From an uncultured Armatimonadia bacterium (GTDB taxonomy: Bacteria > Armatimonadota > Zipacnadia > UBA1398), in the NCBI GenBank assembly GCA_964598695.1, contig CAZRDB010000002.1, positions 30,857-94,856 of the forward strand: 64,000 bases of DNA, written 5' to 3'. Both the position numbers and the translations under genes were made by a program. Shown here in pieces: positions 56,094 through 63,928 of the stretch; within the stretch, counting starts at the first letter, position 1, and the number at the start of each line of letters is the position of its first letter. Below the pieces are notes generated by a model, which had not been told where the DNA came from, did no database searches, and saw only the letters and a program-made list of their open reading frames with translations.

Positions 56094-58154
56094 TTAGCGC
56101 TTGATGACCCACAGGTAGTCGATCCCGATCCCGTCGCCCGCGCTGGCCTCGTTGCGGCCCGCCGACTGAAGCGTGATCGTGTGCTCGCCCGCGGCGAGGT
56201 CGAGCGTTGCGAAGAAGTAGTTGCGCTCCACCTCATGGTAGGGGCTGAACAGGTCGATCGCGTGGTCGGTCGGCTTGCCATCGTCGATCGCGAGACGGAA
56301 CCGGCCGTTGCTCGGCGCGAGCGCCGCGGTCAGCGCGATCTGGTAGCGCCCCGCCGCCGGCACGTCCACCCGGAAGCGAAGCTGCTCGCCCTCGGCCTTG
56401 GGGCTCCAGAGCAGCGACTTGGCGCCGGCGAAGAGAGCCCCCTCCAGCACGCGCGTGTTGTCCTGCCCGGGGGCGAGGGCCGTCTCCGCGTCGAAGAACG
56501 TCGCGCCGGTCGCGCCGCCGGCGGCCATGGGCTCCCAGCCGTAGGCCAGCGTCAGGCCCTGGTGGACGTCGGCCTCGGTGATCGGCACACGCCGGTCGCG
56601 GACTCGCTCGTCGGCATAGAAGTAGGCCGAGCGCGCATAGGTGAAGCCCGGCACGCGCGTGTGGCAGAACAGCTCGAGGTAGAAGCCGATCTCGCGCGAG
56701 AACGGGATCGCGTCGAGGATGTGCCAGCGGTTGTTCGCGACGAGCCCGCGGGTGCCGGGGCCCGTGTTCAACGGCTGGGCGCAGTAGGCATGCCAGAAGT
56801 GGTCGGGACGGCTCCAGGCGTAGTTGAAGTAGTCCTCCGAGCCCGTGCCGAACAGCGAGGGGAAGGTGTCGTCGTCGACGTAGACCTTCTCATCGCCCTC
56901 GCCCCACCAGTTGCCGCCCTCGGTCGGGATCGGGGCCGGGTTGTTGAGCTGCACCGCGACGCCCACGAAGTGGCCGCGGCCGTGGGCGTTGAGGATCGGC
57001 ACATCGAAGACGTCGTGGCCGCCCTGGGCCACGAGATCGTGGTCGACCTCCCAGATGCAGTGGAACTGCAGTGAATCGTCGGTCCATGCGCGCGGCCGCA
57101 CCTGGGCGGTGCCGGTCACGGTCACGGGCTGCTCCCCGAGGTTCTCGAGGACGATCCGGGCGCTCCGGGCGAAGGGCATCCGGAAGCGGCAGACCATCGA
57201 CCCATCCGGCTTGACCGAGAAGGGGAGCGACTCGTAGGGATTGACCCCCACGCCGGCGCCGAAGAAGTCGCCCACGGGCGCCTCGACCTGCGGCTGCGCC
57301 GAGCCGTCGAAGTGGATCCGCAGGATCGTCTGCCGGAGCGCGGCGGTCCGATCGCGCGCGTCCGCCCTGAGCGTCAGCTCGGCGATCTCCGCGGCGCCCT
57401 CCACGAGCAGCGCCTCGGCACGGGTCTTCGGCTCCACCGTGAGGCCGATCTCCCGCGCCTCGGCCCCCTCAGGCGCCGGCCACGGCGTTCCCAGGAGCGA
57501 GGCGGCGGCCCGATCGTACTCGGCGGCGTACGTCTCGAGGTCGGCGGGCGCGAAGGTCTGCACCTCGGTGCCCTCGGGGTAGATCCGCGCCTCGATGTGG
57601 TAGAAGTGGATGTCTTCCTTCTTGCCGATCCACTCGATCCGCATCCCGCGCGCGAAGGGCATCGGCAGGTAGCAGGCCATGTTCTGGTGGAAGCCGTCGT
57701 CGTCGGGGGCGGGCAGGCCGAGCTGCTCGCGGAAGTGCTTCGAGGTCCAGATCAGGAAGCGCTCGGCCGGGCCGTCGTAGAGCGGCGTCGTGGAGCCGTC
57801 GAGGTAGAGCCGGATGCTGCCGGCGTGAGCGGCCGACCAGGTGCGCACGAGCGCGCCGGGGCCGTCGACCTCGGCCATGAGGTAGCGGCCGACGCCCTCG
57901 GCGTTCGGCTCCTCGAGGGTCGCGAGGAAGTTCGGGATCGGCTCCCCGCCGAAGCCGTCGCTGTTCTCGTACCAGTCCGGCGCGTAGGGCGCCACGCTGC
58001 GGCGGTCGTAGCTCGAGAACTGAACGAGCTTGTGGGCGGGTGCGGTCACCGTGGTGAGCCGGTCGAGGTCGTACGTCTCACCAAGGAGCGTTCCGGTGGT
58101 GATCGGCGCGCCGATCGCGGCGGAGCAGGCGAGCAGGGGCGTCCATAACATCAT
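56094..58154 (-). CDS. DUF2961 / glycoside hydrolase family 172-like secreted protein
   Basis: Signal peptide MMLWTPLLACSAAIGAP. Block NWWGEGDEKVYVDDDTFPSLFGTGSEDYFNYAW matches the DUF2961 (GH172) signature as I recall it. C-terminal extra beta domain. Confidence 0.6.
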   Translation of the reverse strand: MMLWTPLLACSAAIGAPITTGTLLGETYDLDRLTTVTAPAHKLVQFSSYDRRSVAPYAPDWYENSDGFGGEPIPNFLATLEEPNAEGVGRYLMAEVDGPGALVRTWSAAHAGSIRLYLDGSTTPLYDGPAERFLIWTSKHFREQLGLPAPDDDGFHQNMACYLPMPFARGMRIEWIGKKEDIHFYHIEARIYPEGTEVQTFAPADLETYAAEYDRAAASLLGTPWPAPEGAEAREIGLTVEPKTRAEALLVEGAAEIAELTLRADARDRTAALRQTILRIHFDGSAQPQVEAPVGDFFGAGVGVNPYESLPFSVKPDGSMVCRFRMPFARSARIVLENLGEQPVTVTGTAQVRPRAWTDDSLQFHCIWEVDHDLVAQGGHDVFDVPILNAHGRGHFVGVAVQLNNPAPIPTEGGNWWGEGDEKVYVDDDTFPSLFGTGSEDYFNYAWSRPDHFWHAYCAQPLNTGPGTRGLVANNRWHILDAIPFSREIGFYLELFCHTRVPGFTYARSAYFYADERVRDRRVPITEADVHQGLTLAYGWEPMAAGGATGATFFDAETALAPGQDNTRVLEGALFAGAKSLLWSPKAEGEQLRFRVDVPAAGRYQIALTAALAPSNGRFRLAIDDGKPTDHAIDLFSPYHEVERNYFFATLDLAAGEHTITLQSAGRNEASAGDGIGIDYLWVIKR

Positions 58155-58193
58155 GCGGGGTCTTCCCTTTCCGTGTGCGCCGAGCCCGTGGCG

Positions 58194-59915
58194 CTAGTCG
58201 GCCTTGCCGAGGACATCGCGGGCCCAGGCCTCCAGGTCCCCATACTGGGGCACCCATGTCGTGTACATCGCGCCAATCACGTTCGGCACGCCGGCCTCTC
58301 TGGCCTGCGCGAACCACTCCCCGTTGTAGAGGTTGGGGTCGTCGTAGTACCCGCACAGGATCTGGCGGTGGCCACGCTCGGCGAACCACCGCATGGTCTC
58401 CAGCCCGCCTCCGTGGTGCCAGTTGGCGATCCCGATCTCGGGCCTGAGACCCTCCCACGAGCCCTCCCAGGAGCCGTTGACCATGTAGTAGTCGCCGTGG
58501 GCGTTGTGGCCGGGGTCGAACATGTCGGACCACACCCAGATCTCCGCCCCGGGCGAGACCTCATGGACCAGCTCGATGCACCGGCGGAAGTTGTCGGCGA
58601 GGAGCCCGCCCGGCGTGAGACCCCGCGATTGGCAGGCCTCACACCAGTTCGCGACGCGGATCTCGTCGTGGTTGAGGAACCAGGTCTTCGGGTGGAGCAG
58701 GTCCTCGACGTACCGGAACTGCTCCCGAAGATACTCGTAGACCTCGGGTTCCGAGAGGCAGCACATCGTCTGGTCGCCCAGGACCCGCGCGGCGTGGTAG
58801 AAGCTCACGCGGAGGCGGGCTCCCTCGGCGATCCGACTGCCCTCGGTGAGCCGGATCGGGATCTCCTCCGGCCACTCGCCGCCCGGCCACCAGGTCGAGA
58901 TCCCCTCCCGCATCCCGGGCAGGGGCTCGAAGTCGCGTCCCTCCTCATAGACCGTCCCGTCCTCCCCCCGCACGGTCACCGGGCAGCCGCCGCGCCGGAG
59001 CAGGTTGACCAGACCGGCTTCGCGGATCTCGAGATCGTCCCACCAGATCGAGCCCGTCGTGCCGCCCCAGGTGCCGAGGTAGACGCGGATCTCCTCGGCC
59101 GCCAGGCTGTTGAAGATGATCGTGTGTCGGGTCCAATCCTGAGTCGACTCCAGGGCGAGGTTGCCGAATGAGCGTGCTGTCCCGTTCATGTCTGCGATGT
59201 AGATGCGGGATGCGGGTCGCGTGTCCAGGTCCCGCGTCTTCACCCAAACGCTCGCGCGGTAGTAGCGGAAGGGCGAGACCCGGAAGCTCTGGCAGATCCG
59301 CCCGTGGCCGTGCGTCGGGTCGGCCGTGCCGATGTCGGTGAAGCGGAGGCTGGAGGCTCCGCCGTGCTTCACCTCGCGATCGGCGAAGCTCCCGGTGCCG
59401 GGGTAGTCCTGGAACGCCCACGAGTCGAACGTGTCGCCGTCCGGCTGCTCGAAGCCCGGATCCCGCAGCACGGGCTCCGGGTCCGGCTCGAGCCGCGCCT
59501 CGCCGCCCCGCGCCACGAACAGCGCGTCGCGCACGGGAAGCCCCTCGTCGAGATTCGGGTTGCGCCCGAGGATCGAGCCCGCGTAGCCGATCGAGGCCAC
59601 GCCGGGCACGAGATCGATCCCCAACTCGTCGCAGAGGGCCTTCACCTGCGCGAGGTTGTCGCGATAGCCCTCCGGGGTGCGGTCGGGCCGCTCGAGCCAG
59701 TAGTCGGCCAGGAGAGCCCGCGTCACCCCTGCCTCCCGCGCGCGAGGGAGCACCTCCCGGGCGCGCGCGAGGCCCTCAGGCGTCGAGACCGAGAAGAACA
59801 AGTGGACCCACAGCTCCGGCCGCCCCGGCGCCGCCTGCCGGCTGCGCGCGGGCGGGGCGGCGACCAGGGCGACAACGAACCCGAGACCGAGAACAGCGGC
59901 GATCGCGCGCGACAT
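58194..59915 (-). CDS. Secreted putative glycoside hydrolase (N-terminal beta-sandwich/CBM-like region plus C-terminal TIM-barrel-like region; family not assignable)
   Basis: Start MSRAIAAVLGLGFVVALVAAPPARS (residue 94 of the track ORF; GGAGG 7 nt upstream; top coordinate 59915 confirmed). C-terminus ...IWVWSDMFDP...NWHHGGG...CGYYDD...AMYTTWVPQYGDLEAW resembles a GH TIM barrel. Confidence 0.45.
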   Translation of the reverse strand: MSRAIAAVLGLGFVVALVAAPPARSRQAAPGRPELWVHLFFSVSTPEGLARAREVLPRAREAGVTRALLADYWLERPDRTPEGYRDNLAQVKALCDELGIDLVPGVASIGYAGSILGRNPNLDEGLPVRDALFVARGGEARLEPDPEPVLRDPGFEQPDGDTFDSWAFQDYPGTGSFADREVKHGGASSLRFTDIGTADPTHGHGRICQSFRVSPFRYYRASVWVKTRDLDTRPASRIYIADMNGTARSFGNLALESTQDWTRHTIIFNSLAAEEIRVYLGTWGGTTGSIWWDDLEIREAGLVNLLRRGGCPVTVRGEDGTVYEEGRDFEPLPGMREGISTWWPGGEWPEEIPIRLTEGSRIAEGARLRVSFYHAARVLGDQTMCCLSEPEVYEYLREQFRYVEDLLHPKTWFLNHDEIRVANWCEACQSRGLTPGGLLADNFRRCIELVHEVSPGAEIWVWSDMFDPGHNAHGDYYMVNGSWEGSWEGLRPEIGIANWHHGGGLETMRWFAERGHRQILCGYYDDPNLYNGEWFAQAREAGVPNVIGAMYTTWVPQYGDLEAWARDVLGKAD

Positions 59916-60087
59916 CGGACACCTCCGTGTCTGCCGGAGCCTCGCGTCCCCCGAGCCCTTCCGCCGGTTCGCCCTGCAGGCGGGTTGGCCTCCACACGGG
60001 GGGAGGGTGGGGCTCCCCGGGGCTCGAACCTCCGAGGCGACAGGGTGTCCAATCGCGGGCGGCAGGACAAGGAGCCGATCGGGACCG

Positions 60088-61266
60088 ATGGCCATGCGCG
60101 GTCTGAGTGGATTGCTGTGCGCGGTCGCGCTCGCGGCGGCGGCCTCGGCCGGCTGGGCCGCGGAGGAGGCCATCGGCCCCGACCCGCCACCCACCTACCC
60201 CAAGACGAAGCGCGTGTTCAGCGCGACCCCCAGCCGAGGCGAGATCAAGCTGCTGCAGTATCTGTTCGTGCGCGGCAAGGGCCTCCGGCGGATCATCAAG
60301 TACGTCGCCTCCACCCCGGGCCAGCCCAGGGTGCAGGTCTTCAAGTACCGCGAGGAACCCGCCCCCACACCGGAGCAGGTCCATGCCTTCTACACGGAGT
60401 GGGCGCGACAGGCAGGCTTCCGGCCCCTCGTCGCGGTGCGGATGGGCCGTCCGCCGATCGACCCGATGCTGGACGACTGGGACCGGCCCTACCGCCCGGA
60501 GCCCGAGCGTCCGCCCGCGCCGTGGGAGGAAGAGGAGTACACCTGGGTCGACGCCTTCCACCGGCCGGGCGACGCCGGTGGCGTGTTCATCAGCGTGTGG
60601 ACCAAGTTCCAGCATGTCTGGGTCTGGAAGCCGGGCCACTGCCCGGTCGCCCCGATCCTCGGGGAGTGGCTCGGCCTGCCGCGCGTCGAGGCGGACATGA
60701 CCCCGCCCGCCGAGGTGCTCCCGTTCCCCGAGCCGCCGGGCTTCCCGCCCGTGGCCGAGACCGGGTTCTACGTCCGTGCCCAGGTGGGCAAGTGGGAGAT
60801 CGATTCGCTCTCGCGGGACCTCCAGGCGCGCGTCCTGAGCAAGCAGGAGCGCCGGGGCCCCCTCGACGCCCTGTTCTCCGTCGCGCCGGCGACGTTCGGC
60901 CCCGTCCGCCACGCCTGGCTCGTCAACTTCCGCGACTTCCCCCCGGCCCGCGAGGCGTGCGTGCAGCCATGGGTCGAGTGGGCCACGCGCCGCGGCTGGG
61001 CCCCGCTGCCGATCACCGCCTCGGGCCCGGCCCGGGTTCGGGCCTGGTACTCCCCTGGCGCGACGGGCGGCGCGATGGTGCTGTTCGACGTGCGGGACAC
61101 GACGAATGTGCTGGTCTTCGACGGGCCGCCGAATCTGATCGCCCTGCTGCCCGTCCTCGACCAGTTCCAGCAGCCGATCGAGGAGCCGCGCCCGCACGCG
61201 GAGGTCGCCGCGCCGACGCGCTCGGTCGAGGAGGCCGGCCATGTCGGCGCCGCGCTCGCGCGCTAG
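60088..61266 (+). CDS. Secreted hypothetical protein (392 aa), Pro/Trp-rich
   Basis: MAMRGLSGLLCAVALAAAASAGWAAEEA is a signal peptide, with aaggag upstream. No recognisable domain. Confidence 0.45.
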   Translation: MAMRGLSGLLCAVALAAAASAGWAAEEAIGPDPPPTYPKTKRVFSATPSRGEIKLLQYLFVRGKGLRRIIKYVASTPGQPRVQVFKYREEPAPTPEQVHAFYTEWARQAGFRPLVAVRMGRPPIDPMLDDWDRPYRPEPERPPAPWEEEEYTWVDAFHRPGDAGGVFISVWTKFQHVWVWKPGHCPVAPILGEWLGLPRVEADMTPPAEVLPFPEPPGFPPVAETGFYVRAQVGKWEIDSLSRDLQARVLSKQERRGPLDALFSVAPATFGPVRHAWLVNFRDFPPAREACVQPWVEWATRRGWAPLPITASGPARVRAWYSPGATGGAMVLFDVRDTTNVLVFDGPPNLIALLPVLDQFQQPIEEPRPHAEVAAPTRSVEEAGHVGAALAR

Positions 61267-61293: not shown

Positions 61294-62694
61294 CTAGCCG
61301 CCGAGTTCGTGCTCCATCGCCTCACAGGTCTCCATGAGGATCTCGGCCAGGGTCGGGTGGGCGTGGACCGTTCGCGAGACGTTCGCGACCGTCGCGCCCA
61401 GCGAGAGCGCGAGCCCGGCCTCGGCGACGAGGTCGGTCGCGTGGGGGCCCACGATGTGGACGCCGAGCAGCCTGCCCGTGGGCTTCTCGGCCACGACCTT
61501 GCAGAAGCCCTCGAACTCGCCGAGGGCGATCGCCTTGCCGATCGCGCGGAACGTCAGGCGGCCGACCAGGATCTCCTTGCCCGCCTCGCGCGCCTGCGCC
61601 TCGGTCCACCCGATCGAACCGACCTCCGGGATGCAGTAGGTGCCCCGCGGAACAAGCTTGTAGTCGAGCGGAGCGGGGTTCCTGCCGAGGATCGCGTCCA
61701 CCGCGATCCGGCCCTCCATCGAGGCGGTGTGTGCGAGTGGGAGCCGTCCGACGATATCGCCGATCGCGTAGACCTTCGGGTTCGCGGTCCGCATCGCGCC
61801 ATCGCACGGGACGTAGCCGCGGTCCAGTTCGACGCCGTTCTCCTCGAACCCGAGCCCCTCGGTGAGCGGCCTCCGGCCGACCGCGACGAGCAGCGTCTCA
61901 GCCTCGTAGGTCGTCGTGGCGCCGCTTGCGCCTGCGGCCGTAACGCGCACGCCGTCGGCCCCGACCTCCGCGCCGGCAACGCGAACCCCGCACTCGATCT
62001 TGCAGAGGTTGCGGTAGAGCCGCTGGATCTCCTTGCTCGCGTCCTCCTCCTCGAGCGGCAACACGCGCGGGAGCAGCTCGAGGACGGTGACCTTCGCGCC
62101 GAATGTGCTGAGGATGTACGCGAACTCCATCCCGATGGCGCCGGCGCCGAGGATGATGACCGAGTCCGGGACCCGATCGAGCGAGAGCGCGTGATCGGAG
62201 GAGATCACCCGTTCGCCGTCGATCGCGATCCCGGGCAGGCTGCGCGGGGCGGAGCCCGTCGCGACGATCACGTGGCGCGAGGGGAGGACGGTCTCCGCGC
62301 CCTCAGCGGTCACGACGACGTTGGCGTCGGCGCCGAGCCGCCCCTCGCCCTGGATGACCTCGACCCCGGCGGTCTTGAGCATGCTCTTGACGCCCTTGGT
62401 CAGGCGATCGACGACCTTGCCCTTGTTCGTGAGCGCGGTCGCCATGTCGAACGAGACCTCGCCCGTGAGCCCCACACCGTAGGCTGCCATGGCGCGCGTC
62501 TGGTGGAGCAACTCGGCCGAGCGGATGAAGGTCTTCGAGGGGATGCAGCCTCGATGGAGGCAGACGCCGCCGACGGTGTCGCGCTCGACGCACGCGACGG
62601 AGAGCCCCCTGCGGGCCGCGTAGGCCGCCGCCACATACCCCCCCGGGCCCCCACCGAGAACCACGAGATCACGAACATCGCTCACCGAGACCAC
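61294..62694 (-). CDS. lpdA: Dihydrolipoyl dehydrogenase (E3)
   Basis: VVLGGGPGGYVAAAYAA...GGVCLHRGCIPSK (redox-active disulfide) ...VIVATGSAP...IILGAGAIGMEFA...AIGDIVG...HAHPTLAE (His-Glu dyad). GTG start. Confidence 0.9.
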   Translation of the reverse strand: MVSVSDVRDLVVLGGGPGGYVAAAYAARRGLSVACVERDTVGGVCLHRGCIPSKTFIRSAELLHQTRAMAAYGVGLTGEVSFDMATALTNKGKVVDRLTKGVKSMLKTAGVEVIQGEGRLGADANVVVTAEGAETVLPSRHVIVATGSAPRSLPGIAIDGERVISSDHALSLDRVPDSVIILGAGAIGMEFAYILSTFGAKVTVLELLPRVLPLEEEDASKEIQRLYRNLCKIECGVRVAGAEVGADGVRVTAAGASGATTTYEAETLLVAVGRRPLTEGLGFEENGVELDRGYVPCDGAMRTANPKVYAIGDIVGRLPLAHTASMEGRIAVDAILGRNPAPLDYKLVPRGTYCIPEVGSIGWTEAQAREAGKEILVGRLTFRAIGKAIALGEFEGFCKVVAEKPTGRLLGVHIVGPHATDLVAEAGLALSLGATVANVSRTVHAHPTLAEILMETCEAMEHELGG

Positions 62695-62730
62695 GATCCC
62701 TTCCGTGTGCCGAACGGCGCTATTGTGCCC

Positions 62731-63846
62731 CTACGCGCCGCTGTCCGCAAACGGCAGGAGGCCCTGCTCGAGTTCGTGCTCGCAGTAGGCGCAGCGCGGC
62801 ACCTTGGGGCTCCAGTCGGTCACGACGGGCCGCTGTGGCAGGGCCGGCTCCTGGACGGTGATGCAGCGCTCGTTGAGGCAGTGGGCCCACTCCTTGGGCC
62901 GCTCGACGGGCCGGAACGGCCGCTCGGCGCAGCAGAAGCCCTCCTGCTCGAGCAGCAGATCGAGCAGCGCCATGCGGACGAAGACGCCCGCCGCGGCCTG
63001 CTCGAAGTAGCGCGCGCGAGGGTCGGCGTCGACCTCGTACGCGATCTCGTCGACACGGGGCAGGGGATGGAGGATCAGCGTGTCGGGCCGCATCTTGTCG
63101 AGCAGGGCCTGGTCGATGCGCGGGATGTCGATCGCGGCGAGCTCGTCGGGCAGACGCTCGCGCTGGAGCCGGGTCATGTAGATCGTGTCGACCTCGGGGA
63201 GGCAGTCCTCGAGGCGGTCGACATAGTTCACCACACCGCGGTAGCGCTTGTGGATCTCGTCGAGCACGTACGGGGGCATCCCCAGCTTGCTCGGCGCGAC
63301 GCAGACCACGCGGGCCCCGAAGCGGACGAGCGCGGTCGCGAGCGAGTGGACCGTCCGGCCCGCGAGGAGGTCGCCGCACAGCGCCACGGTGAGGCCCTCG
63401 ATCCGCCCCTTGGTCCGGCGGAGGTAGTACAGGTCGGTGAGCGTCTGCGTGGGGTGGAGGTGGGAGCCGTCGCCGCCGCTGACGATCGGCACACCGCTCA
63501 GGTCGGCGCAGACCTGGGCCGAGCCCTCGGCCGGGTGGCGGATGACGACCGCGTCCACGTACGAGGCGACGATGCGAATGGTGTCGGCCAGCGTCTCGCC
63601 CTTGGTGACCGACGACGAGCGGATGTCGGAGAAGCCCATCGTGCTGCCGCCGAGCCGCATGAAGGCGGTCTCGAACGAGAGTCGCGTGCGGGTGCTGGGC
63701 TCGTAGAACAGCACGGCCATCAGTTGGCCACGGAGGCGGTCGTTGGCACGCTCGCGGACACGCTCGAAGACGTCCGCGCGGTCGAAGAGCCCCGAGACGT
63801 CCGAGTCGGTCAGGTTGTCGAGTGAGACGAGGTGGCCCACGGGCAT
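62731..63846 (-). CDS. pyrB: Aspartate carbamoyltransferase catalytic chain fused to a C-terminal PyrI-type zinc-binding domain
   Basis: STRTRLSFE (carbamoyl-phosphate binding), ...HPLPRVDEI (ATCase HPLP motif). The C-terminal tail CLNERC then 23 residues then CAYC reproduces the PyrI Zn-domain spacing (C-x4-C...C-x2-C). Confidence 0.8.
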   Translation of the reverse strand: MPVGHLVSLDNLTDSDVSGLFDRADVFERVRERANDRLRGQLMAVLFYEPSTRTRLSFETAFMRLGGSTMGFSDIRSSSVTKGETLADTIRIVASYVDAVVIRHPAEGSAQVCADLSGVPIVSGGDGSHLHPTQTLTDLYYLRRTKGRIEGLTVALCGDLLAGRTVHSLATALVRFGARVVCVAPSKLGMPPYVLDEIHKRYRGVVNYVDRLEDCLPEVDTIYMTRLQRERLPDELAAIDIPRIDQALLDKMRPDTLILHPLPRVDEIAYEVDADPRARYFEQAAAGVFVRMALLDLLLEQEGFCCAERPFRPVERPKEWAHCLNERCITVQEPALPQRPVVTDWSPKVPRCAYCEHELEQGLLPFADSGA

Positions 63847-63928
63847 ACAAACCCTCCTTCGCTCCCCGACACTTCGGAGGACGAGGCGCGGGCTCCTGCG
63901 CTCGCGGGGCCTTGCCGCGCGACGCCTC

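Follow-up and report, generated by a model that had tools for sequence, protein, structure and literature searches.

Aspartate carbamoyltransferase (ATCase) catalyzes the first committed step of pyrimidine synthesis and is a textbook allosteric enzyme. In the 64-kb stretch of DNA that we analyzed (the window; G+C content, 71%), we found an ATCase gene, here called pyrB-Zn, whose product joins the catalytic chain (PyrB) to the zinc domain of the regulatory chain (PyrI) in a single polypeptide that has no PyrI allosteric domain. We infer that this zinc-domain-only fusion most likely forms a catalytic trimer that has zinc clamps built in and is free of control by CTP or ATP. The fusion is widespread and apparently uncharacterized; its domains and its chemistry are familiar. 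The gene lies on the minus strand (a preliminary description of this DNA gave no strand). Its features and the gene that follows it, in plus-strand numbering, are listed here.

62731..63846, minus strand: pyrB-Zn open reading frame (ORF), 371 amino acids (aa) plus stop, ATG start, encoding a PyrB catalytic chain, a linker, and a PyrI-type zinc domain

63853..63858, minus strand: Shine-Dalgarno sequence AGGAGG, assigned from sequence, 6 nt upstream of the ATG

63418..63834, minus strand: carbamoyl-phosphate-binding domain, OTCace_N PF02729, residues 5-143, 149 bits, with S51-T52-R53-T54-R55, K82, and R103

62956..63399, minus strand: aspartate-binding domain, OTCace PF00185, residues 150-297, 95 bits, with R164, R226, Q228, and H260-P-L-P-R264

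62884..62946, minus strand: linker QEGFCCAERPFRPVERPKEWA, residues 301-321, in which RPFRPVERP aligns with E. coli PyrI 96-103, RPSLPERI (tblastn)

62764..62883, minus strand: PyrI_C zinc domain, PF02748, residues 322-361, with predicted ligands C323, C328, C352, and C355

62731..62763, minus strand: C-terminal 10 residues (QGLLPFADSGA region) and stop, pLDDT 47-65, conserved in the closest clade only

61294..62694, minus strand: gene for an lpd-like (dihydrolipoyl-dehydrogenase-like) flavoprotein disulfide reductase, starting 36 nt after the pyrB-Zn stop, with Pfam domains Pyr_redox_2 and Pyr_redox_dim

The 371-aa ORF runs from the PyrB part to the tail with neither a stop nor a frameshift (translation, with codons checked against the DNA), and a protein identical to its product (P0001) is present in a public protein collection. 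The AGGAGG located 6 nt before the ATG forms a strong ribosome-binding site. An ORF of 376 aa in another frame (62720..63850) overlaps pyrB-Zn; at the high G+C content of the window, such long overlapping ORFs are to be expected as noise.

The first ~310 aa of the protein had been read as an orthodox PyrB, and profile searches agreed with that reading. Against TIGR00670, the ATCase equivalog, the window protein scored 311.5 bits (cutoff, 236.95) over residues 5-297, and against NF002032 it scored 296 bits (cutoff, 263). The motifs PSTRTRLSFE and HPLPR occupy residues 50-59 and 260-264, respectively. All of the substrate-ligand residues (S51-R55, K82, R103, H131, Q134, R164, R226, Q228, and H260-P263) are present, and they are invariant among 111 homologs. 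The same is true of the catalytic residues counted in E. coli numbering (R54, K84, R105, H134, R167, R229, Q231, and L267; 111/111 homologs). K82 of the window protein is the equivalent of E. coli K84, a residue that the neighboring chain supplies in known ATCases; since it is invariant, a catalytic trimer is expected. Judged by these profiles and residues, the window protein is a bona fide ATCase catalytic chain.

The tail of the protein matched the zinc domain of PyrI in profile searches. PF02748 (PyrI_C) scored 29.0 bits with the whole protein and 33.1 bits with the tail alone (gathering cutoff, 23.4; E value, 5e-8), a profile match that is far beyond chance. CLNERC (C323..C328) and CAYC (C352..C355) are separated by 23 residues, and the resulting pattern, C323-x4-C328-x23-C352-x2-C355, has the spacing of E. 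coli PyrI (C109/114/138/141). The four cysteines are invariant in 111/111 aligned homologs. Three other residues, N325, E333, and Y354, are close to invariant across the 111-member alignment; together with E356, they are the counterparts of E. coli rN111, rE119, rY140, and rE142. Each of the 37 homologous tails tested matched PF02748 individually (37/37), and a profile built from them matched PyrI chains exclusively in the PDB, with E values of 2e-9 to 2e-5. When E. coli PyrI was compared with the window by tblastn, the one match was to the tail, covering r96-150 with 30% identity and ungapped across the four cysteines. With a model of the tail alone, the PyrI chains 2yww and 1pg5_B ranked top in Foldseek (probabilities, 0.97-0.51). 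Single-sequence searches with the tail gave only chance matches in the PDB (phmmer), and 3 matches among 1.84 billion representative proteins; the latter search yielded no census because the query was too short for a single-sequence search. The preliminary description had recognized both the cysteine spacing and its likeness to PyrI, and both were borne out. PyrB and the tail share a reading frame, here and in >100 independent homologs, so the tail is not a separate short ORF.

In the linker, RPFRPVERP is the counterpart of E. coli PyrI RPSLPERI, the segment that runs into the zinc domain of PyrI. The linker also contains two adjacent extra cysteines, C306 and C307 (62929-62934; GFCCAERPF), both of which are found in P0002 and P0003 and one of which is found in P0004. 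These cysteines are common to the closest relatives only.

In E. coli, the allosteric domain of PyrI contains the nucleotide site as well as the r-r dimer interface through which the two trimers are tied together. This domain (PF01948) had no Pfam match in the window protein. The full-length PyrI model TIGR00240 gave 16-21 bits (cutoff, 148.55), aligning at profile positions 98-144 only, and full-length PyrI models in NCBIfam as a group gave 16-28 bits (cutoffs, 148-171), the aligned part being the zinc-domain segment (profile positions ~98-144). We considered an allosteric-domain remnant in the linker and rejected it, since the PyrI models align only from profile position ~98 onward. Residues 1-95 of E. 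coli PyrI (tblastn) had no match within the 64-kb window. The same was seen in relatives. By tblastn with E. coli PyrI, the allosteric domain was absent from the fused loci L001 to L025, each inspected with 10 kb on either side, whereas the same search found a complete pyrI beside pyrB in 8/8 unfused control loci (two from Enterobacterales and six from archaea). PF01948 was listed for none of the best 120 homolog clusters and was absent from the precomputed Pfam annotation of L038, L039, and L040. The fusion had been described as lacking the nucleotide-binding domain, and these searches bear that out.

We determined the distribution of the fusion among homologs. Most of the best 120 homolog clusters had the architecture PF02729+PF00185+PF02748, and those among the 120 with no precomputed PF02748 match were mostly of equal length. 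The fused clusters (>100) are independent, are of similar length, and represent several phyla and several sequencing projects. Scanning a single genome for each GTDB species returned 25 fused loci. The closest two belong to Armatimonadia/Armatimonadetes metagenome-assembled genomes (MAGs), with 69% and 65% identity (the latter being L002); the others belong to Armatimonadota, to many Clostridia (Oscillospiraceae, Ruminococcus, and Flemingiibacterium), and to one Planctomycetota MAG. Named database members with the fusion add Poribacteria and Fimbriimonadaceae. Current annotation calls the fused proteins merely “aspartate carbamoyltransferase (catalytic subunit).” The preliminary description had judged this ATCase organization unusual; it is instead the rule in a large ATCase clade, albeit one missing from a 2015 review of the family (PMC4581275). 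A survey of PVC genomes for the same fusion had been suggested; a single Planctomycetota MAG was recovered, and the nearest relatives are Armatimonadota, not PVC. Judged by these relatives and by the syntenic lpd-like gene, the window itself most likely derives from an Armatimonadota genome.

In a rough neighbor-joining tree of the catalytic parts, which has no support values and is indicative only, the fused proteins stood apart from archaeal and enterobacterial PyrB proteins with a separate pyrI. A PyrB protein from a Symbiobacterium MAG (L033, 10001-10834) lacks the zinc tail, no pyrI gene lies within 10 kb of it, and it nests in the fused cluster of this unsupported tree; it may have lost the zinc tail secondarily.

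The genes around the fusion differ between lineages. The 64-kb window contains no further pyr gene or carbamoyltransferase gene, and no Rfam match was found in it. The order of pyrB-Zn and the lpd-like gene is kept in the relative with 65% identity (L002), in which the lpd-like proteins are 63% identical and a small methyltransferase gene precedes the fused gene; the neighbors are different in L003, L038, and L039. We therefore rejected a general functional link between pyrB-Zn and the lpd-like gene, the synteny being confined to the closest clade. The cluster in L003 reads carB-pyrF-[pyrB-Zn]-argG-argH-pyrK, that in L038 reads pyrR-[pyrB-Zn]-pyrC-carA...carB, and that in L039 reads pyrK-pyrD-[pyrB-Zn]. 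These pyr and arg clusters around the fused gene in relatives support the view that the window gene encodes a biosynthetic (housekeeping) ATCase. In L038, the pyrR gene, which scored above the NCBIfam cutoffs, lies directly before the fused gene, an arrangement that supports control of the pathway via PyrR in at least some fused lineages. On the far side of the lpd-like gene in the window, the segments at 56094-60194 (minus strand) and 60007-61266 (plus strand) hold a 686-aa DUF2961 protein and then ORFs of 666 aa and 419 aa with no Pfam match; with long ORFs overlapping on the two strands and a high G+C content, the gene calls at 56094-61266 are uncertain.

We then considered how the zinc domain might sit on the catalytic chain. 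An AlphaFold2 (AF2) model of the full-length monomer had a pLDDT of 93 and a pTM of 0.92. The linker and zinc domain reached pLDDT values of 91-96 in this model, compared to 59-90 when the tail was modeled alone (59-83 for the linker). The higher values in the full-length context indicate that, in the AF2 model, the tail is packed against the catalytic body, with the caveat that an AF2 monomer can place in cis a domain that is truly bound to a neighboring chain. Against the PDB, Foldseek aligned the full model with PyrB chains only (TMq, 0.76), and no solved chain spans the fusion.

Residues at the interface between regulatory and catalytic chains were retained to different extents. Contacts documented between the r and c chains of E. 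coli ATCase include rN111-cE109 and rE142/rK143-cS131/N132 (PMC6056424; PMC6981877). On the zinc-domain side, the counterpart of rN111 is kept in 110/111 fused proteins, that of rY140 is kept in 104/111, and that of rE142 is E or D in 92/111. On the catalytic side, the counterpart of cE109 is E in 70/111 fused proteins, including the window protein (E107), and Ala in 37/111. The counterpart of rK143, which acts between trimers in the T state, is not conserved among fused proteins. Residue cY165 was found in 38/111 fused proteins and in all members of the small, 8-sequence reference set of unfused pyrI-linked PyrB proteins (8/8). For cD236, the corresponding counts were 36/111 and 8/8, in a 240s loop whose alignment (D236 and E239) is uncertain; an acidic residue aligned at position 239 in 68/111 fused proteins. 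K/R164 is present in 95/111 members of the fused family, whereas in the clade of the window protein, that protein included, L161/A162 stand where E. coli has K164/Y165, in an alignment that is unambiguous and ungapped. E. coli ATCase in which K164 or E239 has been substituted is noncooperative and stays locked in the R state (PMC6056424). From the conserved contacts and the model, the fused zinc domain is predicted to bind zinc and to touch the catalytic chain at the C1-R1 surface.

We propose that a PyrB protein of the PyrI-associated (E. coli/archaeal, “class B”) lineage became permanently fused, via a linker of ~20 residues, to the PyrI zinc domain, and that the nucleotide-binding allosteric domain of PyrI was lost from the fused enzyme. 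The zinc domain would fold back on its own or a neighboring catalytic chain, at the site that the PyrI zinc domain occupies in the E. coli holoenzyme (C1-R1-type), and would act there as a structural clamp that sets the conformation of the catalytic chain. Since the PyrI dimer interface and the nucleotide site both lie in the missing domain, and since the T-state inter-trimer residues have decayed, the enzyme is probably a (PyrB-Zn)3 trimer with R-like, hyperbolic kinetics and without heterotropic control by CTP, UTP, or ATP. We favor this trimer, with zinc clamps docked in C1-R1-like fashion and no nucleotide effectors, as a reading that is somewhat better than an even bet. The pathway would then be controlled at the level of gene expression (in some relatives, PyrR is encoded next to the fusion) and by downstream homeostasis.

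A larger assembly is a rival reading. The zinc domain, covalently joined to one catalytic chain, might reach a chain of the opposite trimer and so bridge two trimers, in an R1-C4-like or domain-swapped manner, giving a (PyrB-Zn)6 hexamer in which homotropic cooperativity for aspartate is kept and nucleotide control is absent. In the T state of the E. coli enzyme, the zinc domain is in contact with catalytic chains from each of the two trimers, and many fused members outside the window's clade keep K/R164 and the acidic residue at 239, at the frequencies given above. The window's clade, however, has L161/A162 for K164/Y165; rK143, the cross-trimer partner of cD236, is not conserved; and the tail is compactly packed in cis in the AF2 model. 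The engineered complex of zinc domains with a catalytic trimer is also said to have stayed a trimer. We consider a bridged hexamer unlikely. Regulation might instead be supplied in trans, by a separate protein with only PF01948 or by a full PyrI that docks onto, or competes with, the fused zinc domain. Split domains occur in other systems, and the DNA inspected was 64 kb of the source genome and 10 kb on either side of the fused gene in relatives. Within that DNA, PF01948 was absent from the window, from the 25 fused loci, and from the pyr operons of L038, L039, and L040, whereas the control loci always had pyrI beside pyrB; a full PyrI would moreover need to push aside a zinc domain that is tethered covalently. 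Control in trans is quite improbable.

A different function for the zinc site has to be weighed against the favored structural clamp. The Cys4 site might be a sensor, in which oxidation or loss of zinc unfolds the clamp and alters ATCase activity, so that pyrimidine synthesis would follow redox or zinc status, with the adjacent disulfide-reductase-like gene functionally linked to it. Cys4 zinc sites can be labile to oxidants and mercurials, and mercurials dissociate E. coli ATCase. The lpd-like flavoprotein gene lies 36 nt after pyrB-Zn in the window and follows it also in L002, and the window's clade has the extra linker cysteines C306 and C307. The lpd neighborhood is nevertheless restricted to the closest clade, the fused gene having pyr or arg neighbors in other lineages, and the extra cysteines are not conserved beyond four close relatives. 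We regard a sensor of this kind as very unlikely. That the fusion is no more than an assembly or frameshift error joining pyrB to a truncated pyrI, or that the tail is an unrelated zinc ribbon, was an a priori possibility for a MAG-derived sequence with 71% G+C. It is refuted by the presence of the architecture in >100 independent clusters, by the invariance of the cysteines (111/111), and by a tail profile that matches PyrI exclusively, and its probability is close to nil.

Some members of the fused family are longer than the window protein. Two metagenomic proteins of 648-649 aa (P0107 and P0111) consist of PyrB, a PyrI zinc domain (359-402), and a PyrR domain (~457-627) that scored 152.7 bits against the equivalog NF003549 (cutoff, 138); in these proteins, which have no PyrI allosteric domain, the zinc domain thereby carries a uridine-nucleotide-binding module. 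In the Planctomycetota MAG (L023) and several members of 450-460 aa, the zinc domain is followed by an extension of ~50 residues (…RRIKPENRVYFESEQQA..GFR…) that weakly resembles PF02805, the metal-binding domain of Ada, with a score (20 bits) that falls short of the cutoff (23 bits). Fused members of 400-460 aa have an insertion inside the aspartate-binding domain.

A large natural clade of zinc-domain-only enzymes would help to show how the zinc domain serves the catalytic chain apart from nucleotide signaling. Candidate roles are stability, an R-like conformation, and shaping of the active-site entrance via the S131/N132-R167 network. Such a clade would also give evolved counterparts to Schachman's engineered zinc-domain complexes, and the fusion would illustrate a loss of allosteric control, perhaps with a swap for a PyrR module, in which a piece of the interface was retained. 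A broader idea, which we hold to be unlikely, is that the PyrI zinc domain is a general adaptor on this ATCase lineage for varied sensory modules, the PyrI allosteric domain being one option and the PyrR and Ada-like additions behind the zinc domain being others, and that the bare form may be a redox- or zinc-responsive switch. If this is true, the clade would offer a series of natural enzymes in which to dissect the passage of signals across the r:c interface.

The fusion can be set against the known forms of ATCase. A 2015 review of the family describes three prokaryotic types: dodecamers associated with dihydroorotase (DHOase), PyrB6PyrI6 holoenzymes (separate or fully fused), and bare trimers (PMC4581275). 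The “fused” form cited there is a complete PyrB/PyrI fusion only, and a catalytic chain with just the zinc domain is not listed (PMC4581275). Our literature search, which had most subscription journals outside its reach, returned no account of a PyrB protein fused to the zinc domain alone. Anyone who looks through the domain combinations in Pfam can see this architecture. PROFICS (PMC8446807) came up as a possible PyrB-PyrI fusion and was rejected, as it concerns N-terminal blocking of a circularly permuted PyrB.

With the E. coli-type (class B) holoenzyme, (PyrB3)2(PyrI2)3, the window protein shares a catalytic chain that is 43-44% identical to E. coli and P. abyssi PyrB (TM, 0.9), the cysteine spacing of the zinc domain, and, in the fused form generally, conservation of the r:c contacts N111, Y140, and E142. 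It differs in that the zinc domain is in cis at the PyrB C terminus, the allosteric domain is absent, and L/A replaces K164/Y165. The Thermotoga maritima-type PyrBI (NF009916; ~525 aa), which belongs to the “fused” dodecameric type (PMC4581275), likewise has catalytic and regulatory parts in one polypeptide. In contrast to the window protein, which is ~150 residues shorter, it contains the whole of PyrI, both the allosteric and the zinc domain, and is reportedly allosteric; the window protein scored 101.5 bits against NF009916 (cutoff, 800), over residues 44-298, the catalytic part only. With class C, the unregulated Bacillus subtilis-type trimer under pyrR, the fusion shares an expected trimeric state without nucleotide effectors and, in a relative, the layout pyrR-pyrB-pyrC-carA. 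B. subtilis PyrB, however, has no zinc domain and is far more distant (130 bits, compared to ~260 bits for E. coli-type PyrB). The best functional analog is an engineered complex: Markby, Zhou & Schachman (PNAS 1991) reportedly paired the 70-residue zinc domain, isolated from PyrI, with the catalytic trimer of E. coli ATCase. That complex, like the window protein, has catalytic chains and zinc domains without allosteric domains. It is noncovalent and man-made, whereas the window fusion is covalent, natural, and evolutionarily conserved.
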